64,000 nucleotides of DNA from the NCBI GenBank assembly GCA_963740355.1, contig CAVUDW010000003.1:864001-928000 (forward strand). The letters are read 5' to 3'. Origin of the DNA: an uncultured Gemmatimonadaceae bacterium (GTDB lineage: Bacteria; Gemmatimonadota; Gemmatimonadetes; Gemmatimonadales; Gemmatimonadaceae). Positions within the stretch are counted from its first letter, which is position 1. Each line of letters opens with the position of its first letter. Positions 30,889 to 41,036 of this stretch are shown here, piece after piece. Position numbers and translations under genes: made by a program. The notes below the pieces were generated by a model that saw only the letters and a program-made list of their open reading frames with translations, ran no database searches and was not told where the DNA came from.

Positions 30889-31540
30889 GCGTGTGACTCT
30901 CAATGACAAGGTGACGCTCGACGATCGTGTGCTGGCGAGGCTGGTGGCGATCGCTGCGATGGAGCCGACCGTCGACCTGGCGAAGCGGGACAGCTACGTC
31001 GCAGCGGCGGGTTGGAACGTCGACTCACGCGAAGCCGCGTTGCTCTCCGAACTGCCTGGACCACCAGCGGCGGCAGGGCCATTCGTTGCCGCGCGCAGCA
31101 TCCTCGAACGATACGCCTTCCCGCCACGACGCCTGATTCGTGGCACATTCGATCCGGACGCACCACTGGACGGTCGCGCGATGCTGCTGACGGCGACCTT
31201 CCTCTGGATGACGTTCGAATTGCCCGTGAGGGTCAGTCGCGTGATCGACATGGTGCGCGATGGTGCTGCCGGTCCCGAGCAGGTGTGGGGCTACAGCTAC
31301 CAGACGCTCGCCGGTCATATCGAGCGAGGAGAAATCACGTTCGAAATCGTCAAACAGCTCGCAACGGGTGCGATCGCCTTTCGCATTCACTCGTTCTCGC
31401 AGACCGGCCACATCGCCAATCCGATTCATCGTATCGGCTTCCGTCTCGTCGGTCGGCGGCTGCAGCGCCGGTTCGCCGAAGAGTCATTGCACAACATGCA
31501 GTTGATGGTCGCAAGCAGCGTCGCTGACGCCTCGACGTAA
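30878..31540 (+). CDS. DUF1990 family protein
   Basis: WGYSYQTLAGHIERGEITF, FRIHSFS, LQRRF; GTG overlaps the previous gene. Confidence 0.7.
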   Translation: MTPERVTLNDKVTLDDRVLARLVAIAAMEPTVDLAKRDSYVAAAGWNVDSREAALLSELPGPPAAAGPFVAARSILERYAFPPRRLIRGTFDPDAPLDGRAMLLTATFLWMTFELPVRVSRVIDMVRDGAAGPEQVWGYSYQTLAGHIERGEITFEIVKQLATGAIAFRIHSFSQTGHIANPIHRIGFRLVGRRLQRRFAEESLHNMQLMVASSVADAST

Positions 31541-31788
31541 CACAGCGACACCACCGTGGAAGCTGCACGATCCATCCACGTCGAGCCACGAACACGTCGA
31601 GCAACGCGCAGACAACTCCGCGGGCCCCAGACGCCACAGAGCACACACCGCACGCGATCTCGGTAATCGCGACGGTGTGTGACTCGGTGTTTCACCAACG
31701 GTTCTGGGCCGACGGTTTTCTCGAGCGGTGTTCACCAGCAGGTGCAACCGTGGCGCACGACAATCCAGTCCACGCGCCGCCGGACGAT

Positions 31789-31965
31789 CTATGTGGAAAT
31801 CTTGCGCCCGGTCACCAGCCCGACCAGCAGCGCGATGACGGCAAAGACGACGAAGACCATGAACAGCGTCTTCGCAATGCCTGCCGAGGCAGACGCGATA
31901 CCGCCAAAGCCGAAAACGCCGGCGATGAGGGCCAGTACCAGGAATGAAAAAGCCCAGCGAAGCAT
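31789..31965 (-). CDS. DUF1328 (UPF0391/YtjA) small membrane protein, 58 aa
   Basis: Not in the ORF track. [35 protein letters not shown]... is the family signature; GGAG RBS. Confidence 0.9.
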
Positions 31966-31979
31966 TTGTGTCTCTCCGT

Positions 31980-32216
31980 TCAGTGTTGATGCGTGTCGTT
32001 CTGGTACTTATCGAGATCGGCCTGGCGTGACTCGTACTCGGTCAATTCCTGCTCGACCTCATCCTTTGCCTTGCCATACCGCTTCTGGATCGCACCGATG
32101 AGCTGGTCACGCTTGCCCGCGATGACATCCATGTCGTCGTCGGTCAGCTTGCCCCACTGCTCGCGCAGCTTGCCCTTGGCGTCCTTCCAATTCCCTTCGA
32201 TGGTATCCCAGTTCAA
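31980..32216 (-). CDS. CsbD/YjbJ family stress protein
   Basis: TTG start after [33 protein letters not shown]...[15 protein letters not shown]. Confidence 0.92.
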
Positions 32217-32243
32217 GGAGACTCCTTGCAAGGGGTAAAAATC

Positions 32244-32358
32244 AAAAAAGCGCGACAGAGCACCCCAGCACGGGGACTCGATCACGCCTTCGACTGACTG
32301 GGCCTCAGCCCGATCCGTCAAGGATCCCTGAACGATCTCAGGGTATGTCGTGCAACAG
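32244..32358 (-). ncRNA. Putative structured ncRNA or leader, copy A
   Basis: Hairpin CCCTGA/TCAGGG, CCTTGACGGA, hairpin GGGC/GCCC, GTCAGTCGAAGGC, terminator plus T6. Ends are inferred. Confidence 0.6.
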
Positions 32359-32368
32359 CTTCTATACG

Positions 32369-32384
32369 TGCAAGATGCGTGCTC
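32369..32384 (-). promoter_or_regulatory. Sigma-54-like promoter GAGCACGCATCTTGCA
   Basis: GCAC-N5-TTGCA with correct spacing, but AG replaces GG in the -24 element. Confidence 0.45.
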
Positions 32385-32420
32385 GCGCCTCGCGTAGGAG
32401 TCGCGCGCAAAGAACCGAAC

Positions 32421-33140
32421 TCAGTTGTATTGCAACAGCAACTCCAGACGCTGACGCAGCTCCGCCAGTTGCTTCGACTTGAAGGCGTGCTTCGTCTCCT
32501 CGAGCACCTCGACCGTGTGCTGAATCGCGGCAGTCAGCTGCGAACCACGCGGGCAGTTCATGATCTGGCAGGCGTGCGCATCCACTGGTGTACCAGCCAG
32601 CGCACGTCCCAACTGCTCGAGATCAGTAAGCGATCCCATCACATTGCGGAGCGCGAGCGACAGGAAGGTGTCAGCACTTGGTGCACCGGGGCCACGCTGT
32701 GTGGCAAGCTGGTCGTACCGCTGCCGCATGTCGTTCAGCCGCAACTCCGCATCCTGCATCGAACGGAACGACCGGAAGCGCGTGACGGCTGCGTTGACAC
32801 GCTCCGCCAGCTCGGAGTACTGCACCGGCTTGGTCAGGTACGCCGCCACCGGCAGCTCGATGCTCGCCACCGCCGACCGAACACTGGGGAAACCGGTGAG
32901 GATGATTACCGGCAAGCCGCCACGCACCTGGGCCACCCGTCGCACCAGCGCGAGGTCGCTGTTTCCCGGCATCTCGAGATCGGTGATCAACAGGTCGAAC
33001 TGTTCATCCACGATCAACTCGAGTGCGCGAGAACCGTCGAGCGCCGTCTCGCACTCGTACCCATCGCGACGCAACAGGTCAGCGGTGGATTCGAGGAACG
33101 TCGGCTCGTCATCGGCAATCAGGATCCGGCCCCGCGTCAT
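32421..33140 (-). CDS. Response regulator (REC plus unrecognised helical C-terminus)
   Basis: ILIADDEP, DLLITDLEMPG, ILTG, YLTKP; ATGA overlap with the kinase. Confidence 0.88.
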   Translation of the reverse strand: MTRGRILIADDEPTFLESTADLLRRDGYECETALDGSRALELIVDEQFDLLITDLEMPGNSDLALVRRVAQVRGGLPVIILTGFPSVRSAVASIELPVAAYLTKPVQYSELAERVNAAVTRFRSFRSMQDAELRLNDMRQRYDQLATQRGPGAPSADTFLSLALRNVMGSLTDLEQLGRALAGTPVDAHACQIMNCPRGSQLTAAIQHTVEVLEETKHAFKSKQLAELRQRLELLLQYN

Positions 33141-35713
33141 GCTGTCACTCCAGGAACTGATGTCTCTGCAAGGGGAATCCTTGCGATGAACTCCGCGCCA
33201 CCACCGGCGGCATCGGCCACGTTAATGCTTCCACCGGCTGCATCAAGTGCGCGGCGGACCAGCGACAGCCCCAATCCCATGCCGCCGGTCGAGAGTTGCG
33301 ACGGCTTGGTGGAGACGAATGGGTCGAAAATTTCCTCGCGCAACTCACTTGGCACGCCCGGACCCATGTCGCTCACGCGAAGCACGAAGTCGGGACCGTC
33401 GATCCAGCCCTGCACCGACACCGTCGACCCGCGCGGCGACGCCTCGATGGCGTTCTGCACCAGGTTGTACACACATTGCCGAAGAATCGTGTTCGGCAGG
33501 CGCACGACCGCAGCGATGCCACCCATCTCCACCTCAATGCTAACACCGGTGTTGCGATTCACCTGCTCCAGGAAGGCAACCGCATCGCCCACCACCGTCT
33601 GCACCGGCGCGTTGGAGCTCGACTCGGTCTCCGGACGGTAGGTCTCATACAGCTGGCGCGTGACCTGGCTGATCCGCTCCACCTCACGCTCGATCGCTCC
33701 CACATACTTCACGTGCGGGTGGGTCGCCGGAATCGCATCCTTGATCAACAGGAATGCGCTCTGGATGCCGGCCAGCGGATTGTTGATTTCGTGTGCGATC
33801 CGCGCGGCCAACCGCCCCATGGTGCTCATGGTCTCCGCTTGCCGGAGGGATTCCTCGGCGTGGCGACGATCGGTCACGTCAGCGAACATGCCAAGCAGGC
33901 GCATCGGCGTGCCCTCCGGCGAATAGAGCACCACCCGTCCGCGATCGAGGAAATCGTGCCATCGGCCCGCTGCGCTTTTCACGCGGTACTGCGCGTCGAA
34001 GGCATCCACGCGTCCAGCCAGATGATCCGCGATGCGTGCCTCGACCCCCGGTCGATCCTGCGGATGAATCAGTGCCAGCCAGTCGGACATCCGCCGCAAG
34101 GCGGCACCACTGCCATACCCCAATCGCACCCAGAGCTGCGGTGATCGCGTCACGACACCACTCAACAGGTCCCACTCCCACAATCCGTCCGTCGTCGACT
34201 GCAGCGCGCGATCGAGTGCCGCGCGCTCCTCGCGACGTGCCGTTTCCGACACTGATTGCGCCAGCCGCAGTGCGATCGCCAGCAGCACCGACACCGCGAT
34301 CCCAAGCAGGAGCACGAAATCACTCAAGCTGGAGGGCGTCACGGCTGCGGTGCGCGCCGACGGCCACACGCCGAGTTCCCATTCCGGCCCGCCGCGGATG
34401 ACCGCCTCGCGCACCAGGTGATGCAGACCACCGGCTGCTGCTGCCGGCGCCGACGCGCGAAACCACGCGCCCTGCTTTCCGATCGCCATCTCGAAGCCGA
34501 GCACTGTGTCGGCCAGCACGGTGCCGAGCAGCGTCCTCGAATCGACGAGGGCCACGAATATAGCGCTGCAGTCGGTGGCAACGCATCGCGGAATCACCAT
34601 CAGCGCACGGGAAGGATCACCGTGCAATGGGATGAATCGTGCCTTGCCCGTGATGTCCGCCCGAATCTGCGGCGCGAGCGGTCGGACAGTGACGTCGATC
34701 GTGTCGAGCATTCCTCCGCGCGCGCCGTTGTTGGCCGCCAACCGCTGGCCTTCACGATCCGTCCACACCATCGCCTCGAGCCCGCCGATGTCATCCACGA
34801 TCTGCGCCGACACAGCGCTCCATCGCGCGTCGGGCGCCTGGCTGTAGCGCGCCTGTCGTTGCAGGCTACGCTGCGCGACCATCAGCTGGCGGATCACCGC
34901 CGAGCGTGTGGCTCGTGCGGCGACTCGCGTCTGCTGGCTGAGGAGTCGGTCCTCGCTCAGCAAAAGGGCGCGCCAAAGCAGGAGGACTGTGACGAGTGAC
35001 CCCGCCCCAACCGAGAGTGGAAGCCATGCAGGCGGCGGCGAGAAGCCCGCTTCCTTGGTCCAGACGAGCGCATTGAAATGTGTCGCGAAGACGATCGCGC
35101 AGACCGTCGACTGCAGCGACGACCCAAGCAACGGCCCGTACTCCAAGCCATCCAGGAAACCCATCAGCTGACCGACGATCACTGTCGTGGCGAGGAGCAT
35201 GACGATCCCCCCAGAGGCCGACAGAATGATCGACGACCAGAGTCCCCGGCGACGCGACACGATCGCGAGCAGACCAACACCCCCAAGGGTCACGAAGACC
35301 GCGCTCGATAACGCTACCTGCCCAGGCATTTCGCCGTGCCAGTTCGCGTGCGCGGGCGACGGAATCTGCGCCAGGGCCGTCCACAACCAGTCGATCCCCT
35401 GCGCGTGCTGGAGGGCAATCGTCCCCAGCACGATCGCGATCACTCCGCAGACCTGTGCGATCCGCTGCCGCGAAGGGAACGGTGACGCATACAGGCCGGC
35501 TCCAACGAACAGCAGCCCGAGTGCCGGCATCACGCGCAACGGCGGGAAGGCGTCGAAGGGCTGCATCAACCACGCGACGTCCAGCACCCAGCCAAGCAGC
35601 GCCACGGCGGCCGTCGCGATCAGTAGCAACGCCACCGACCGCGACGCACTCGCCGTCACGAAGGCTCGCATCACTACGAGCACCTTCGGACGATACGAGG
35701 TGGCGCGTGCCAC
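33137..35713 (-). CDS. Multi-TM PAS sensor histidine kinase
   Basis: Multiple N-terminal TMs, extracytoplasmic segment, PAS (DGLWEWD...IHPQDR), IAHEINNPL, NLVQNA, DMGPG, GMGLGL. Start may be ATG 35671. Confidence 0.9.
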   Translation of the reverse strand: MARATSYRPKVLVVMRAFVTASASRSVALLLIATAAVALLGWVLDVAWLMQPFDAFPPLRVMPALGLLFVGAGLYASPFPSRQRIAQVCGVIAIVLGTIALQHAQGIDWLWTALAQIPSPAHANWHGEMPGQVALSSAVFVTLGGVGLLAIVSRRRGLWSSIILSASGGIVMLLATTVIVGQLMGFLDGLEYGPLLGSSLQSTVCAIVFATHFNALVWTKEAGFSPPPAWLPLSVGAGSLVTVLLLWRALLLSEDRLLSQQTRVAARATRSAVIRQLMVAQRSLQRQARYSQAPDARWSAVSAQIVDDIGGLEAMVWTDREGQRLAANNGARGGMLDTIDVTVRPLAPQIRADITGKARFIPLHGDPSRALMVIPRCVATDCSAIFVALVDSRTLLGTVLADTVLGFEMAIGKQGAWFRASAPAAAAGGLHHLVREAVIRGGPEWELGVWPSARTAAVTPSSLSDFVLLLGIAVSVLLAIALRLAQSVSETARREERAALDRALQSTTDGLWEWDLLSGVVTRSPQLWVRLGYGSGAALRRMSDWLALIHPQDRPGVEARIADHLAGRVDAFDAQYRVKSAAGRWHDFLDRGRVVLYSPEGTPMRLLGMFADVTDRRHAEESLRQAETMSTMGRLAARIAHEINNPLAGIQSAFLLIKDAIPATHPHVKYVGAIEREVERISQVTRQLYETYRPETESSSNAPVQTVVGDAVAFLEQVNRNTGVSIEVEMGGIAAVVRLPNTILRQCVYNLVQNAIEASPRGSTVSVQGWIDGPDFVLRVSDMGPGVPSELREEIFDPFVSTKPSQLSTGGMGLGLSLVRRALDAAGGSINVADAAGGGAEFIARIPLAETSVPGVTA

Positions 35714-35787
35714 GATCTCCCGGACGGTTGGACGGTTCAGCGATGCTCCCGGTATCTACGACAAGGACAGCGCGCGGGCCCTGCGGG

Positions 35788-36282
35788 CTACGCCACTGCA
35801 TCAGACCACTCGGCAAGAGGAGCGGACGACACTGCGCCGAACTGCAATGCCCGTGACCCGATCCGCGCCAGCGACTCCTCCAGCACATGCACCGATCGCT
35901 CGACATGTGCCTGACGTGCGAAGCGGAGCGCAAAGCTGCACGATCCCATCAGGAACACCTGCGCCTGCTGCAGCACGCGGATGATCTCCTGATCACGCGC
36001 CACCGACGCGGCACGGTCGCGCAAGGCCGTCAGGGACCGGAACAGCGTGCGAGTGAGATCGCCATCGGTCCGATCACGCCGAACGAGCACGTCACCAAGA
36101 ATACCATCCAGGTGCGCCAGATGTTCGGCGATTGCGGCCTCGAACCCAGCCACGATCTCAGCGCGCTGCTTGGACACCAGCAAACTCCGGAACACCGGCA
36201 GCGTCACGAACAGCGAAATGCTGCCATCATGCAGCTCCGCGAGCTCCTCGGCGAACTGCCCATTTACTGTTGCATCAGCCAT
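35788..36282 (-). CDS. Degenerate ferritin-like (DUF892/YciF-like) protein lacking metal ligands
   Basis: GGAG RBS; near-gapless by-eye alignment to the YciF at 39138 (see findings). Confidence 0.65.
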   Translation of the reverse strand: MADATVNGQFAEELAELHDGSISLFVTLPVFRSLLVSKQRAEIVAGFEAAIAEHLAHLDGILGDVLVRRDRTDGDLTRTLFRSLTALRDRAASVARDQEIIRVLQQAQVFLMGSCSFALRFARQAHVERSVHVLEESLARIGSRALQFGAVSSAPLAEWSDAVA

Positions 36283-36683
36283 GGCTGCTCCACGTCGGCC
36301 CAGGCACGCAGAACGCCCTTGGCCGTGAAAATGAAAAGCGCGCGCGACTCCATTGCGATGGAATCGCCCGCGCCTTCAACTGACGAGCCCAAGTCTCGTC
36401 CGCCAAGTGTACCCGCTCAGAATTCTTCCGGCAGGTCAGAAAACAAGTAATAGGGCGCGATTCCGCGGCGCAAGCAGCCAAGTCCTTCCGGACTCGCCTC
36501 TCGCGCCCTGCGCAACAATCCCGGCGAAATATCAGGTCACCGCGTCACCGGCGTCGCCGTCCGCGACTCGGCATCGCGACCGCGGTTCGAGCATGCGTAT
36601 GCCAGCATCGCGACCAGGACCAGGCCAGCCGCAGGGAGCATCATGCGTGTCTTCATGGGAAATCAGCCTCCAGATTCGCGCAC

Positions 36684-36789
36684 AAAAAAGGCGACGACTG
36701 ACCTGACGGTCAGGAATCGCCTCCAACTCGCGGATCGCCTTCTCCGCGCGAAAAGGTCATGCCAACGCCCGCGTGCACCACGCAGACAC
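36684..36789 (-). ncRNA. Putative structured ncRNA, copy B
   Basis: 5' hairpin GTCTGCGTG/CACGCGGGC, CCTTTTCG, hairpin CGCGGA/TCCGCG, AGTTGGAGGC, terminator AGGCGA..CTGACC/GGTCAG..TCGCCT plus T-run. Confidence 0.6.
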
Positions 36790-36799
36790 ATCAGGATTT

Positions 36800-36815
36800 T
36801 GCATCAACCATGCCA
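36800..36815 (-). promoter_or_regulatory. Putative sigma-54 promoter TGGCATGGTTGATGCA
   Basis: Exact GG-N10-GC; the predicted +1 (~36789) coincides with the start of the 5' hairpin of copy B. Confidence 0.65.
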
Positions 36816-36831
36816 ACGGTCACCACCTGTC

Positions 36832-36847
36832 CGGCGCGCTTCGTGCA
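36832..36847 (+). promoter_or_regulatory. Putative sigma-54 promoter CGGCGCGCTTCGTGCA
   Basis: GG-N10-GC, back-to-back with 36800-36815, about 90 bp upstream of ATG 36939. Confidence 0.4.
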
Positions 36848-36938
36848 CCGGCATCATACGTCGCGCGATGTGTCACGACGCGCGCATATCGTCGCAGTGT
36901 CGAAGTCAGCGCAGAAGAATCTTTCGAGTGAGGTAGAT

Positions 36939-37487
36939 ATGTCAGACAACAACGCCACCGCCGTTAACGCACAGCATGATCCGCAGGATGATGCACAGCT
37001 TCGCCTGCGCGAACTGATCAGCGGAATGCGAATCGCGATGGCAACCACCATTGCCGCCGACGGCGAGTTGCACAGCCGACCGATGTATGCGCAGGACGCC
37101 ACCGCCGATGGCGACCTCTGGTTCGCCACATCGCGCTCGTCCTCGATGGTGAAGGAGTTGCGCAACCGCTCGACGATCCATGTCACCTTTTCCGACACCG
37201 ACAAGCAGCGATACGTCGTGCTTCGCGGCGAGGGATTCGTCCGTCACGATGCAGCCAAGATCGAGGAGCTGTGGAATCCGGCCATGAAGGCGTGGTTCCC
37301 CGGCGGCCCATCGGACCCGGACCTCACCCTTGTGCGTGTCGAGGCGATGAGTGCCGAGTACTGGGATTCACCCAGCGCGCCGGTACGCTGGCTTCAGTTC
37401 GTGAAGGCCCTGGCGACCGGTAGCCGGCCACAAGGTGGCGGCCATGTCACGCTCGACACGATCGACTCTGGGCTCGCCGGCAAGTGA
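36939..37487 (+). CDS. General stress protein 26-like / pyridoxamine 5'-phosphate oxidase family FMN-binding protein
   Basis: GAGG RBS; LHSRPM, GDLWFAT, LWNPAMKAWFPGGPSDPDL, AEYWDS. Confidence 0.88.
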   Translation: MSDNNATAVNAQHDPQDDAQLRLRELISGMRIAMATTIAADGELHSRPMYAQDATADGDLWFATSRSSSMVKELRNRSTIHVTFSDTDKQRYVVLRGEGFVRHDAAKIEELWNPAMKAWFPGGPSDPDLTLVRVEAMSAEYWDSPSAPVRWLQFVKALATGSRPQGGGHVTLDTIDSGLAGK

Positions 37488-37569
37488 TCGAGCATTCCGA
37501 CGTCCGCGTCGCAATCGAGCGCGCGGCCGCGCACCAATTCCAGCAAGGCACAACATCGTGAAAGCTCCA

Positions 37570-38769
37570 ATGAACCTGCATTCGGGAACGCCGTTCTGGC
37601 TGGTCAAGAATGGCGTGTGCCCAAGCCGCACCGCGCTCAACGCGTCCGAGACATGCGATGTGGCGATCATCGGTGCCGGTATCACCGGAGCGCTCCTCGC
37701 CGACTCGCTGACGCGGGCGGGCCTCGACGTCGTCGTGCTCGACCGACGTGAATCGGGGGGCGGCAGCACCAGTGCCAGCACCGCACTGCTGCAGTATGAA
37801 ATCGACATCGAGTTGCTGGCCCTCGGTGAGCACATCGGCAAGGATCAGGCATCGCGCGCCTATGTCGCGTCCGCCAAGGCGGTCGAGACCCTCGGCACGC
37901 TGGCCATCGAGCTTGGAGGATGTGACTTCCAGGCGCGATCGAGCCTCTACCTCGCCTCGACGCGAAAGGATGCCGACCGGCTGGAGCAGGAAGCGGTGGC
38001 CCGTGCCGCCATCGGAATTCCAGTGCAGTGGTGGTCGAAGAAGGAGGTGAAGTCGCGCTACGGTTTCGCATCCTTCGGAGCCATCCGCAGCGCACAGGCT
38101 GCCGAGATCGATGCCCTGCAAATGTGCCGGGCGCTGCTGGAGCGCGCCCAGGGACGCGGCGCGCGGTGGTACGAGCAAACCGGTGTGACGGCGTATGAGG
38201 AACGGGGTGCCGGTGTACGCCTGTTCACCGCCAACGGTGAAACGATCAACGCCAAGCTCATCGTCTGCGCCACTGGATACGATGTGCCAGCGTTCCTCAA
38301 GCAGGATCGCTGCACACTCCACAGCACCTACGCCCTGGCGACGCATCGCCTGCCGAGCTTCGGACCGTGGGACGATCGCTGTCTGGTGTGGGAGTCCGCG
38401 CGGCCTTACTGCTACCTCCGCACGACCAGTGACCGCCGCATCATCATCGGCGGCGAGGATGTGCCATTCCGCGACGCCGCATGGCGTGATCGCCTGCTAC
38501 CGGGCAAGACGCAGAAGCTGGAGCAACGGCTGCAGCGCCTGCTCCCCGACCTCGAGACCGAGACGGCATTCGAATGGGCAGGCACCTTTGCGGAGACGAA
38601 AGATGGCCTGCCGTACATCGGTCGCGATGAACGGTACCCCGGCGTGCTCTTCGCACTCGGCTACGGCGGCAATGGAATCACGTTCAGTGCGATCGCGGCC
38701 GACCTGCTCACCGCAGAATGTCGCGGTGAGACATCAGCAGACGCCGATCTCTACAGAATGACACGCTAG
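37570..38769 (+). CDS. FAD-dependent oxidoreductase (DAO/glycine oxidase-like)
   Basis: IIGAGITG, GSTSASTALLQYEID, WAGTFAETKDGLPYIG, GYGGNGITFS. Confidence 0.88.
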   Translation: MNLHSGTPFWLVKNGVCPSRTALNASETCDVAIIGAGITGALLADSLTRAGLDVVVLDRRESGGGSTSASTALLQYEIDIELLALGEHIGKDQASRAYVASAKAVETLGTLAIELGGCDFQARSSLYLASTRKDADRLEQEAVARAAIGIPVQWWSKKEVKSRYGFASFGAIRSAQAAEIDALQMCRALLERAQGRGARWYEQTGVTAYEERGAGVRLFTANGETINAKLIVCATGYDVPAFLKQDRCTLHSTYALATHRLPSFGPWDDRCLVWESARPYCYLRTTSDRRIIIGGEDVPFRDAAWRDRLLPGKTQKLEQRLQRLLPDLETETAFEWAGTFAETKDGLPYIGRDERYPGVLFALGYGGNGITFSAIAADLLTAECRGETSADADLYRMTR

Positions 38770-38783
38770 ATCGCGCAAACGTC

Positions 38784-38799
38784 TGGCGCAGTATTTGCA
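38784..38799 (+). promoter_or_regulatory. Putative sigma-54 promoter TGGCGCAGTATTTGCA
   Basis: Near-consensus TGGCAC-N5-TTGCA with exact spacing. Confidence 0.7.
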
Positions 38800-38809
38800 C
38801 TCTCCTCGA

Positions 38810-38995
38810 TACCAACAGTGACAGACACGACGCCGACCTGATATACCGCGCGTCGTTGAAACACGAGACCGAAGCAGGTCTCACCATTGACGACAGATCC
38901 GGTTCCGCCGCGTCTGTTTCCTTGTCGCTCGAGTCGAAGGCTCGAGAGATGAAGGCGCGAACGGTGCCCCGGTGCCGACTCGCGCCTTCTTGTTT
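38810..38995 (+). ncRNA. Putative structured ncRNA or leader, copy C
   Basis: Several 5' hairpins, CCTTGTCG (38920-38927), hairpin CTCGAG/CTCGAG, AGATGAAGGC, terminator GAAGGCGCGA/TCGCGCCTTC plus TTGTTT. Confidence 0.55.
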
Positions 38996-39137
38996 CCGGG
39001 CATCGAGCCCGGCAATTCGGACGCGGATGCACATGGTATCCCGTCCGTACACCACGCACCTCGTCGGTACCTCGGTACGCGACGCGATGCGCAGAGTCTG
39101 CGCCTGCGAAGGCGGCGCAGCATGGAGGATCGACACG

Positions 39138-39710
39138 ATGGCGCTCGCAACGATGCACGACCTGATGATTGCTGAATTGAAGGATCTCTACAGCGCCGAA
39201 ACGCAGTTGGTGAAGGCGCTGCCGAAGATGGCCAAGGGCGCCAACACGCCCAGCCTCCGCAAGGCCTTCGAGGATCATCTCGAGCAAACGCAGCAGCACG
39301 TGGCACGACTCGACGAAATCTTCGGCATTCTCGGCTCCAGCCCGCGTGGAACCAAGTGCAAGGGCATGGAGGGGTTGCTCGAGGAAGGCAGCGAGATGCT
39401 CGAGGAAGAGGGCGACGACACGGTGCGTGATGCCGGGATCATCGCAGCCGCACAACGCGTCGAGCACTACGAGATCGCGGCCTACGGGAGCACCCTCGCC
39501 TTCGCGACTCTGATGGGCCATTCCGAAATCGCCGAACTGCTCGAGCAGACGCTCGAGGAGGAGAAGGCGGCCGATGTACTCCTCAGCTCGATCGCCGAGG
39601 AGGAGGTGAACATCGCCGCACCTGGCATGGAGGCCGTCGATGATGACGCCGACGTTGACGAGTCTGACGTGAAGACGAAGGCTCGCGCGACGACGCGCAA
39701 GACGCGCTGA
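39138..39710 (+). CDS. yciF: Ferritin-like DUF892 stress protein
   Basis: GGAGG RBS; ELKDLYSAETQLVKALPKM, HLEQT, AAQRVEHYEIAAYG, TLEEEK. Confidence 0.9.
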   Translation: MALATMHDLMIAELKDLYSAETQLVKALPKMAKGANTPSLRKAFEDHLEQTQQHVARLDEIFGILGSSPRGTKCKGMEGLLEEGSEMLEEEGDDTVRDAGIIAAAQRVEHYEIAAYGSTLAFATLMGHSEIAELLEQTLEEEKAADVLLSSIAEEEVNIAAPGMEAVDDDADVDESDVKTKARATTRKTR

Positions 39711-39730
39711 TCACACTGCCCTCCAACCAC

Positions 39731-39764
39731 GCGTGGCGCCGGCTCAGATTGGCCGGCGCCACGC
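39731..39764 (+). terminator. Hairpin after yciF
   Basis: 13-bp perfect stem GCGTGGCGCCGGC/GCCGGCGCCACGC; no T-run. Confidence 0.5.
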
Positions 39765-40029
39765 GATGCGCCCGCGCGCCGTCGCGACACTCACATCGCA
39801 GCTGACAGGTTGCCGCTGACGTCGATTCCGCAATCGCTGAGGCGGAAACGCTACGTGGGGCAGTACCGGGTAATCCCGATGCTGCCCCACCATTGCGTGT
39901 CCGCGCAAGGATATATGAACATCAGCTTTCACGAGGAACTCGTTCGCTCCCCGGAGCGCGCCGGCGCTGCCACCTCGACATCACGTGCTACGACATTTCG
40001 TCAGGGCTCGGATTTCCGGACCCAAAACG

Positions 40030-40130
40030 AAAAAAGACATGAACCGTGGCCAGGAGCCGTGGTTCATGCCTTCGACTGACGAGGTCTGATCCTCGTCCGA
40101 CAAGGCGCCTCATACAGCGAGGCACATGTC
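40030..40130 (-). ncRNA. Putative structured ncRNA, copy D
   Basis: Hairpin GCCTC/GAGGC, CCTTGTCGGA, hairpin CGAGG/CCTCG, GTCAGTCGAAGGC, terminator GGCATGAACC/GGTTCATGTC plus T6CGT4. Confidence 0.6.
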
Positions 40131-40193
40131 CGTGCGGGACTGCAACTTCAGGTGCTTGTCGTCGTCCCGCGCTCTCGGTGAACGCCTGACGAC

Positions 40194-41036
40194 CTACAAC
40201 CCCTTCGCAAACCCCTCACGAAAAGAAGCATAGCGGGGGGACCAGCCTGACGCCAGTAGAGCTCGGTTAGAAACCCGCTGGTTGTTCCGGCTTCGCTGCT
40301 GGTCATTGGCAAAAACCAGCTGGTCCGGATTCCCACCAGCGGATGCCACCAACCAGCGTGACACGTCCGCGGCGAGCGCAGGGGAACCATCACTCACATT
40401 CAGCACCCGTGGCACGCCATCGGCCTTCAGCATATGCAACAGCGATGCCACGATGTCGGCCTGATGGGCGAGGTTGGTCCAATACTGACCGCGCTCAGGG
40501 AGCGTGGCGGCATCGCGCATGCGCCCGCGAGGATCACGCCCAGGGCCATAGATCCCTGCCACGCGCAGCACGGTCACCCCGCTCTGCCCTGACGAGAGGA
40601 GGATGTCTTCCGCAGCGATCAATGCCGCGTTGCCGCTCCCCTCACCGAGGCGCGGGCTCTCCTCAGTCACCCACGCACCGTCGCGCCCGCCGTATACTCC
40701 CGTACTCGACGTATAGAGGAGCGACTGCGCGCCAGTCGCTCGCGCCAATGCCAGCGCTCCCATCGCGGCCGGCGGGTACACATCGTCGTATGCGTCCGCA
40801 CCGCGTGATGGCGCCACCGTGAGCACCACCGCGTCCAGCGTCGACGGCAGGCCATCGACCTGCCCCGCCGCGATATCCCCGCGCAACCAGGTCACACCGC
40901 CAGTGTCCGTCGTTACGCCACTGCGGCGCACGGCCCAGACGGCGTGGCCGACGTCACGCGCAGCCGTGGCGAAGGCACGGCCCACATAGCCGGCGCCAAG
41001 CACCGCGATTCGAAGTTGCTGCACAGGTTCAGTCAT
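40194..41036 (-). CDS. NAD-dependent epimerase/dehydratase (YeeZ-like atypical SDR)
   Basis: VLGAGYVG, YTSSTGVYG, LRVAGIYGPGR. Confidence 0.85.
   Translation of the reverse strand: MTEPVQQLRIAVLGAGYVGRAFATAARDVGHAVWAVRRSGVTTDTGGVTWLRGDIAAGQVDGLPSTLDAVVLTVAPSRGADAYDDVYPPAAMGALALARATGAQSLLYTSSTGVYGGRDGAWVTEESPRLGEGSGNAALIAAEDILLSSGQSGVTVLRVAGIYGPGRDPRGRMRDAATLPERGQYWTNLAHQADIVASLLHMLKADGVPRVLNVSDGSPALAADVSRWLVASAGGNPDQLVFANDQQRSRNNQRVSNRALLASGWSPRYASFREGFAKGL

Follow-up and report, generated by a model that had tools for sequence, protein, structure and literature searches.

Within a stretch of DNA rich in general-stress genes, why does one intergenic layout recur again and again, and what is it for? 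The stretch (here, the window) comprises 64,000 nucleotides (nt) from the genome of an uncultured Gemmatimonadaceae bacterium (assembly GCA_963740355.1, contig CAVUDW010000003.1, positions 864,001 to 928,000). A first-pass annotation, made from the sequence alone, had marked four such elements (A, B, C, and D) and read them as a sigma-54-linked family, either of small RNAs (sRNAs) or of repeated cis-regulatory leaders. We find that the elements are copies of a real, conserved, and previously undescribed structured RNA family. We give about even odds to the following reading: the elements are cis-acting 5' leader RNAs of a new family, and each controls, by means of an intrinsic terminator that is conditional, whether transcription proceeds into a general-stress gene. 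A leader with a hairpin that competes with a terminator is an already known kind of element; what is new is the family, and for its effector there are candidates only.

All four elements are present, and their layout was confirmed by reading positions 31800-40600 and extracting each element in its own orientation: CCUUGNCG (box 1), a variable hairpin, AGNNGAAGGC (box 2), and an intrinsic terminator. Read directly, A and D each carry CCTTGWCGGA, exactly 15 nt, and then the exact 13-mer GTCAGTCGAAGGC (32286-32298 and 40068-40080, both on the minus strand), and their 15-nt spacers form differing hairpins (GGGC/GCCC versus CGAGG/CCTCG), all as first described. The 13-mer alone is weak evidence (7 matches with at most 2 mismatches versus 2.99 expected; 2 of 100 shuffles reached 7). 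A version of it with one mismatch (36372-36384, minus strand) belongs to a fifth copy, E, which the first-pass annotation overlooked. Element C does have a box 2, but the wrong sequence had been named: the AGTCGAAGGC at 38932-38941 lies in the loop of the intervening hairpin, and the real counterpart is AGATGAAGGC at 38947-38956, abutting the terminator. The resemblance among A to E is beyond chance.

A covariance model was built from six copies of the bacterium's own genome and searched against that genome and its relatives, as the first-pass annotation had proposed; homologs were found, and their changes in paired positions support the structure. Nine copies were detected in the 5.45-Mb genome, four of them outside the cluster in the window. 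The cluster consists of copy A (32244-32330, minus strand; 69.6 bits), 27 nt upstream of a csbD-like gene; copy E (36334-36415, minus strand; 67.3 bits), 51 nt upstream of an operon for a 164-amino-acid (aa) protein, a histidine kinase, and a response regulator; copy B (36683-36763, minus strand; 70.0 bits), 26 nt upstream of a 39-aa lipoprotein-like open reading frame (ORF) at 36537-36656; copy C (38913-38993, plus strand; 71.8 bits), 144 nt upstream of a DUF892 gene (39138-39710; Pfam, 1e-57); and copy D (40029-40112, minus strand; 75.8 bits), behind which lies a conserved, apparently non-coding region with no convincing ORF. Copy F lies between ku and ligD, in front of ligD, 330 kb from the cluster. 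Copies A to F score 67 to 76 bits (E values of 1e-17 to 3e-20), and copies G, H, and I score 45.8, 33.6, and 27.7 bits, respectively. In copy A, box 1 (CCTTGACG) starts at 32323 and is followed by the P2 hairpin, box 2 (AGTCGAAGGC, 32295-32286), and a terminator whose T-run ends at 32244. The upstream part of the same copy (32333-32383, minus strand) includes the P1 hairpin CCCTGA..TCAGGG (32343-32326), and an alignment of the upstream regions of csbD-type orthologs revealed compensatory changes in P1. In copy C, box 1 starts at 38920, the P2 stem is CTCGAG..CTCGAG, and the true box 2 leads directly into the terminator.

Structure statistics were computed from an alignment of 83 sequences and 500 shuffles. 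The consensus consists of a P1 hairpin; 5'-CCUU-GNC-G; a stem of 6 to 7 bp with a loop of 4 to 9 nt; A-GNY-G-AAGG-C; a GC-rich terminator hairpin; and a U-tract. In the nested model, 91.7% of cells are paired versus 77.3% after shuffling, and 0 of 500 shuffles reached the observed values, although the alignment was fitted to the model, so that the percentage paired is inflated, and the relatives are not independent. Double changes occur in 16 of the 20 pairs, and sliding the 3' partners by 1 to 3 columns lowers the pairing to 34 to 54%. G-U pairs are common (e.g., 23 of 83 sequences at pair 12-69), which fits an RNA encoded on this strand. Box-to-box spacing is not constant, and the stem in between changes through compensatory substitutions and through G-U substitutions specific to one strand. 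The residues that the model leaves unpaired hardly change at all: G16, G67, and the bulged G70 are identical in 83 of 83 sequences and A63 is identical in 81 of 83, which is the signature of a recognition site and not of a generic hairpin.

The family is narrowly distributed. The covariance-model searches covered Gemmatimonadota, and beyond that phylum a narrow exact pattern was run over genome contigs only; these are samples of genomes, in which a motif that was not found is not necessarily absent. Among 101 relatives (including the unpublished genome G051, on which alone no claim rests), 26 carry the motif, including 19 of the 19 other sampled species of the same genus and one genome from each of six further genera. 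When the phylum was sampled evenly, 15 of 151 genomes had the motif; all belong to one order and, within it, to two families (3 of 31 and 11 of 71). Ten further families, represented in this sample by 48 genomes, gave no match (0 of 48). Of 151 genomes sampled from the second family, 18 carry the motif, which there occurs in 9 of 78 genera. The copy number per genome ranges from 1 to 15, with up to 15 in the second family. The 22 loci returned by the exact-pattern scan of contigs were all from Gemmatimonadaceae, Gemmatimonadales, Gemmatimonadota, or Gemmatimonas metagenome-assembled genomes. Across 20 species of the genus, orthologous copies are kept before orthologous genes.

The first-pass annotation had not recognized the family, and a check against Rfam 15 (4227 models) bears this out, with 0 matches at gathering thresholds over the whole window; at E values of up to 10 over 31500-41000, only chance-level matches to sR30 and Cis2_sRNA appeared, neither of them on the elements. 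Full-text literature searches, in which relevance was judged from the title and the start of the abstract, brought up, among the papers listed, no RNA motif, riboswitch, or sRNA described for Gemmatimonadota. The one csbD-linked motif that surfaced in print was the unrelated "YjbJ" candidate of Streptococcus (PMC11109978).

Copies H (G000:C3:1220528-1220606, plus strand) and I (G000:C3:363186-363268, plus strand) (loci L080 and L081) form a sub-variant of the motif, in which box 1 is CCUGAUCG and box 2 is AGAUGAUGG, and a G-G mismatch replaces the bulged G. H and I share an identical P1 context, an exact TGGTAC-N5-TTGC site lies upstream of I, and variants resembling both were also seen in genomes G005, G079, and G198. 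A relaxed pattern for P2 hairpins that lack a terminator gave 906 matches in the own genome, in 35 of which the stem reaches 5 bp or more; none was a terminator-less copy of the motif, and the only motif-like ones were the known copies B, C, D, E, and G.

The position of the copies suggests a function in cis. Among the 100 usable copies (i.e., those with enough flanking DNA), 69 have, within the next 150 nt (median, 44 nt), the start of an ORF in the same orientation that encodes at least 50 aa and has a Shine-Dalgarno sequence, versus 15 of 100 in the divergent control orientation. In csbD-type copies, the T-run is separated from the start codon by 21 to 28 nt, a gap too short for a separate promoter, so that csbD would be transcribed only through the terminator. 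The 178 matches include 11 tandem pairs with gaps of 40 to 116 nt; four of these gaps measure 40 to 54 nt, P1 included, and leave so little room for a promoter that the second copy would depend on read-through of the first. The downstream genes form a coherent stress set, with Pfam matches to CsbD, DUF892, DUF1328, Ku, DUF4397 (among several lipoproteins), PAS and HAMP kinases, and GerE regulators. In genus g65, the gene behind a motif copy encodes a REC-AAA+ sigma-54 activator; in the own genome, a search for its ortholog gave generic matches (39 to 46%) to ten activators, none of which stands beside a motif copy. The RNA chaperone Hfq (PF17209) was not found in this 94.5%-complete genome. 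The short ORF distances, the tandem copies, a terminator base that competes with the conserved hairpin (see below), and the lack of a detected Hfq together favor the cis-leader reading. Of the two options in the first-pass annotation, then, what held is a multi-copy structured RNA tied to general-stress genes, with the evidence favoring a leader over an sRNA. Leaders that have been terminated may also act in trans, in a dual role.

The competition concerns the AAGG of box 2, which has two alternative partners: the CCUU of box 1, closing P2, and the 3' arm of the terminator. When six copies of the own genome were folded together with RNAalifold, GAAGGC paired with GCCUUU at the start of the U-tract. 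In the 83-sequence alignment, the pairing of box 2 with the terminator 3' arm (90.6% paired versus 76.2% shuffled) has support equal to that for P2 closure. The majority form CCUU/AAGG/CCUU occurs in 50 of the 83 sequences, and in four sequences the three segments covary, as CCUC/GAGG/CCUC twice (genus g52) and CCCU/AGGG/CCCU twice (genus g53). Such joint change of all three segments is the outcome that would be expected under selection on both conformations, here from a small number of events (two genera, perhaps two to four events). In minimum free energy (MFE) folds, 9 of the 9 own copies adopt the extended terminator with box 1 free. Forcing P2 to close costs 0.9 to 8.5 kcal/mol, strips basal pairs from the terminator, and leaves 1 or 2 C residues between the stem and the U-tract. 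Given the extended terminator in these folds, termination would be the default, and any factor keeping P2 closed would weaken the terminator. Separately, a role for box 2 as the Shine-Dalgarno sequence of a leader peptide was considered and rejected, because in most copies no start codon lies at a suitable distance.

We therefore propose a switch of the following kind as a model. Each leader is built of a variable P1, a conserved imperfect P2, a GC-rich terminator hairpin, and a U-tract, with P2 taking the form 5'-CCUU-GNC-G (6- to 7-bp stem-loop) A-GNY-G-AAGG-3', in which the unpaired G, the A, and the bulged G are invariant. AAGG can close P2 by pairing with box 1 (CCUU), or it can pair with the CCUU at the head of the U-tract and make up the terminator base. 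Left to itself, the RNA prefers the full terminator, and "off" would be the default. A trans-acting factor recognizing the P2 internal loop would keep AAGG engaged there; with P2 closed, the terminator would be shortened and pushed away from the U-tract, and RNA polymerase would read through into csbD, DUF892, DUF1328, ku/ligD, the lipoprotein genes, and the kinase-regulator operon itself. Of all this, the family, its structure and position, the two pairings open to AAGG, and the co-occurrence of motif and regulator are observations; that termination is conditional, which way the switch works, and what its effector is are proposals.

The promoters in front of the leaders differ, and the leader stays constant, which we counted in favor of a switch. 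Canonical sigma-54-type sites precede B (TGGCATGGTTGATGCA, 36800-36815, minus strand) and C (TGGCGCAGTATTTGCA, 38784-38799, plus strand), and AGCAC variants precede A (AGCACGCATCTTGC, 32383-32370) and D (AGCAC-N6-TTGCA, 40141-40156, minus strand). At E there is no such site; the promoter-like element there (36444-36474, minus strand) consists of CTTGCG (36474-36469) and TTACTTG (36450-36444). These sites are kept among orthologs in the genus: TGGCNN-N5-TTGC in class C (DUF892; 11 of 11), TGGCAY-N5-RTGC in class B (lipoprotein; 5 of 5), AGCAC-N5-TTGC in class A (csbD; 8 of 8), AGCAC/AGTAC/AGCAT-N5-DTGC in class D (no gene; 6 of 6, with N6 in the own copy), and CTTGCG-N~19-TTAYTTG, which is not sigma-54-like, in class E (kinase operon; 11 of 11). 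The own genome encodes rpoN and about ten activators. Over the 100 usable copies, a strict sigma-54 motif lies upstream of 12 (versus 3 on the opposite strand and 1 in a distant window) and an AGCAC-type variant lies upstream of 11 (versus 7 and 0, respectively), and most copies of the second family have neither. The sigma-54 link of the first-pass annotation is thus correct for the cluster and kept within the genus, but it is limited to some ortholog classes; judged from these sequence patterns, sigma-54 elements are not a property of the family, and the leader is the common denominator across promoter types. The E-type element resembles the -33/-7 type of promoter found in Bacteroidota and may be the form that housekeeping promoters take in Gemmatimonadota. 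In genus g65, three TGTGCAC repeats stand between the stop codon of the regulator gene and the single motif copy (L061:1690-1740, minus strand); they may represent a TGCAC-N5-GTGC promoter variant or an activator binding site.

Besides the inflated pairing percentages and the few three-way events, several points weigh against the leader reading. Of the usable copies, 31 fail the ORF criterion, and in the genus no clear ORF follows any of the D-type copies (6 of 6), as would be the case for a stand-alone RNA. The P2-closed form is never the MFE state, and the overlap between P2 and the terminator is only 4 to 5 nt. In A- and E-type copies, what the terminator loses on P2 closure is in essence a single G-C pair together with A-U or G-U pairs, and the effect on termination could be small. 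A search for sequencing runs that contain 31700-40300 listed no RNA run and three runs, of DNA or of unknown type, with part of it.

If the leaders are switches, the first-choice factor would be the response regulator encoded beside the motif (32421-33140, minus strand), a REC domain joined to a Cys-containing helical domain, which would be driven by the PAS histidine kinase of the same operon (33137-35713, minus strand; Pfam PAS_3, HisKA, and HATPase_c); a small ligand would be the other option. In this 239-aa protein, Pfam finds REC only. The C-terminal 120 aa (32424-32783, minus strand) belong to no known family, with no match in Pfam or NCBIfam (in which only the REC part was found), 0 phmmer matches against the PDB, and nothing usable in the ESM Atlas. 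This domain is highly conserved, and its C-x4-C motif (CQxMNCPRG) and FKSK are invariant in 33 of 33 aligned sequences. We found 420 homologs of about 240 aa, in which the annotated domain is likewise REC only.

The distribution of the C-terminal domain follows that of the motif. It was detected in 23 of the 101 relatives, all 23 of them motif positive (23 of the 26 motif-positive genomes), and in 18 of the 151 genomes of the phylum sample, among which are 14 of the 15 that carry the motif. In genus g65, motif and regulator occur in the same 3 of 4 genomes. A metagenome set comprised 80 loci encoding relatives of the regulator, 70 of them with at least 350 nt of downstream DNA; at 51 of the 70, a co-oriented motif copy starts 66 to 263 nt after the gene. 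The gene behind this adjacent copy varies (CsbD, a porin-like protein, DUF1328, and others). Copy E stands in front of the regulator's own operon, and E-type copies precede the same ORF, in 11 of 11 genus members. As a control, ANTAR proteins were found in 44 of the 101 relatives without tracking the motif, and they are missing from all five motif- and regulator-positive genomes outside the genus (G045, G059, G079, G085, and G099). Co-occurrence and adjacency fit a regulator-leader module.

The case for the regulator also has its weak sides. Its C-terminal domain has no recognizable RNA-binding fold, and an AlphaFold2 prediction from 33 sequences was confident for REC and too poor to interpret for residues ~130 to 239 (predicted local distance difference test scores of 40 to 64). 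Four motif-positive genomes (G005, G015, G023, and G194) gave no regulator match with the query used, G023 having a single weak motif match; G198 and G217 carry the regulator with only a weak, divergent motif match about 2 kb away; G153 and G102 have distant regulator matches; and 19 of the 70 metagenomic regulator loci have no adjacent motif copy. The co-occurrence may reflect nothing more than a single co-inherited gene island. We consider the response regulator a candidate effector that is, on balance, doubtful. A wider proposal, which we hold to be unlikely as a whole, is that the general-stress regulon of these Gemmatimonadales is defined by an RNA leader and not by a dedicated sigma factor and that it is run by an unrecognized two-component antitermination system. 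The PAS kinase would phosphorylate the regulator, whose C-terminal domain would be a new RNA-binding antiterminator module that clamps the P2 internal loop of the 1 to 15 leaders per genome, including that of its own operon, and polymerase would pass the terminators whichever promoter (sigma-54 or housekeeping type) it started from.

Two known antitermination systems work in a comparable way. In the ribonucleic antiterminator (RAT)/terminator leaders bound by BglG, SacY, and LicT, an imperfect hairpin with conserved internal-loop and bulge nucleotides overlaps, with its 3' side, the 5' arm of a terminator upstream of the gene, and one factor serves several copies. The present family is alike in that its conserved hairpin overlaps the 5' arm of the terminator through the AAGG of box 2 with its two partners. 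It differs in the shorter overlap (4 to 5 nt), in preceding stress genes and not sugar-utilization genes, and in having no sequence or Rfam similarity; moreover, the CAT_RBD domain (PF03123) had 0 matches in the own genome, with the control positive in 4 of 14 reference genomes. Targets of ANTAR proteins contain two hairpins with conserved hexaloops. The logic proposed here is that of the ANTAR systems (AmiR, NasR/NasT, and EutV): a two-component system whose REC-containing regulator has no DNA-binding domain, and leaders with two hairpins before a terminator, the second of which competes with it. However, the regulator's C-terminal domain has no ANTAR match (Pfam, E values of up to 0.01), the single ANTAR protein of the own genome is encoded at another locus, and the distribution of ANTAR does not follow that of the motif; in addition, the P1 and P2 loops vary in size (4 to 9 nt) and sequence, and the conserved part is an internal loop. 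The family therefore falls in neither the RAT nor the ANTAR class, although its architecture works like both.

The same cis architecture could instead serve an orphan riboswitch, with the P2 internal loop and its invariant G, A, and bulged G as the binding pocket for a small molecule or an ion. Binding would tip the balance between P2 and the terminator upon a stress-related signal, which might be an alarmone, a second messenger, or an ion that goes with osmotic or desiccation stress. We regard this as possible but improbable. Invariant unpaired nucleotides inside a covarying helix, a structure that overlaps the terminator, and a conserved structured element in cis upstream of an expression platform are all in keeping with it, as are the many copies per genome before functionally related genes, the tandem arrangement known from some riboswitches, and the motif copies in G005, G015, and G194, in which the regulator was not found with the query used. 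Against a ligand sensor stand the very small conserved core (about 45 nt, with a 4x5-nt internal loop), the narrow range of two families within one order, unusual for a universal metabolite, and the tight linkage to one regulator gene, which would be unexpected; furthermore, all copies found use a terminator and no other expression platform, in a search whose model included the terminator. A published case for comparison is a weak riboswitch candidate, the YjbJ motif, reported in Streptococcus only, whose two hairpins lie about 30 nt before the start codon of a CsbD-like gene (Narunsky et al. 2024; PMC11109978). The small terminator-embedded candidates of that study resemble the present leaders in placing a short hairpin motif and then a terminator before a stress-related gene, with no known ligand; the YjbJ motif has no sequence relation to the present family, which has no Rfam match, is multi-copy, and serves a whole set of stress genes. 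The family resembles small orphan riboswitch candidates in that a hairpin is merged with the terminator, and a ligand is a live alternative to the regulator.

Alternatively, the elements could be trans-acting sRNAs of about 110 to 190 nt, transcribed on their own, ending at the terminator, and pairing, e.g., through the single-stranded CCUUG of box 1, with purine-rich ribosome-binding sites. The genes behind the copies would then be mere neighbors or would be read by leaky termination. Promoters directly upstream, several of them of the sigma-54 type, strong terminators, a box 1 that in MFE folds is unpaired between two hairpins like a seed region, multiple clustered copies, and the D-type copies with no ORF behind them agree with this explanation, which we nonetheless think unlikely. 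The 69 of 100 copies placed just upstream of a co-oriented ORF include gaps down to 17 to 30 nt, and those genes need read-through. Some tandem copies are only 40 to 54 nt apart; box 1 covaries with box 2, which would be unexpected if it were a seed for outside targets; Hfq was not detected; and the Rfam scan placed no known sRNA family on the elements. The Qrr sRNAs of Vibrio and the Pxr sRNA of Myxococcus, which the first-pass annotation had cited as precedents, are likewise multi-copy, about 100 nt in length, and terminator ended, and some of the present copies have sigma-54-type promoters. The present family is neither Qrr nor Pxr: no sRNA family matched in the Rfam scan (the presence of Qrr and Pxr models in the library was not separately confirmed), Hfq was not found, the position and tandem arrangement point to action in cis, and sigma-54 sites occur in some ortholog classes only.

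That the elements are no regulatory RNA at all but ordinary terminators, repetitive extragenic palindromic (REP)-like repeats spread by duplication, or a DNA operator for a transcription factor is very improbable and already disfavored: box 1 and the complement of box 2 do form an imperfect inverted repeat in DNA, and several copies do follow a co-oriented gene (A after the regulator, E after the lipoprotein ORF, and D after an epimerase-like gene), but copy B lies in a divergent intergenic region, the box spacing varies, the intervening stem changes in the compensatory, strand-specific manner described above, the 9 copies in 5.4 Mb are mostly 5' of genes in sense orientation, and they are kept before orthologous genes in 20 species, which is not the picture of the high-copy REP-type repeat that the first-pass annotation had asked about.

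The remaining features of the cluster concern the genes around the leaders. The csbD-like gene behind copy A (31980-32216, minus strand; Pfam CsbD, 7.5e-21) is followed by a DUF1328 gene (31789-31965, minus strand; Pfam DUF1328, 2.9e-14). The 164-aa protein is encoded by the first gene of the operon behind copy E (35788-36282, minus strand); it had no match in Pfam or NCBIfam, and a PDB search gave chance-level matches only (E value of 0.5). Its gene is kept in front of the kinase gene within the genus. Between B and C (36939-38769, plus strand) lie a Pyrid_ox_like gene (of the "general stress protein 26" type) and a gene for a DAO-family flavin adenine dinucleotide oxidoreductase, which are divergent from B and have no motif copy of their own.

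The DNA behind copy D (39740-40028, minus strand) contains an apparently non-coding stretch of ~250 nt that is conserved in 6 of 6 genus orthologs (mean identity, 71%), as aligned with the regions downstream of the D-type copies of L006, L007, L011, L029, and L030. It includes a long hairpin (~39848-39898 in the own genome), and 15 of its 78 predicted pairs show compensatory changes. In the own genome, a stop occurs after 23 codons; some orthologs have a frame of 55 to 75 aa. The stretch had no match in Rfam and may itself be a structured RNA, the second one here, under the control of leader D.

Gene regulation in Gemmatimonadota is barely known, and the family offers a testable handle on the stress and desiccation genes (CsbD, DUF892, DUF1328, Ku/LigD, and others) of these abundant soil and sediment bacteria. 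An orphan leader of such simple architecture is well suited to the hunt for a ligand or a protein, and with the link to a regulator whose output domain has no assigned function, one experiment could assign functions to both.

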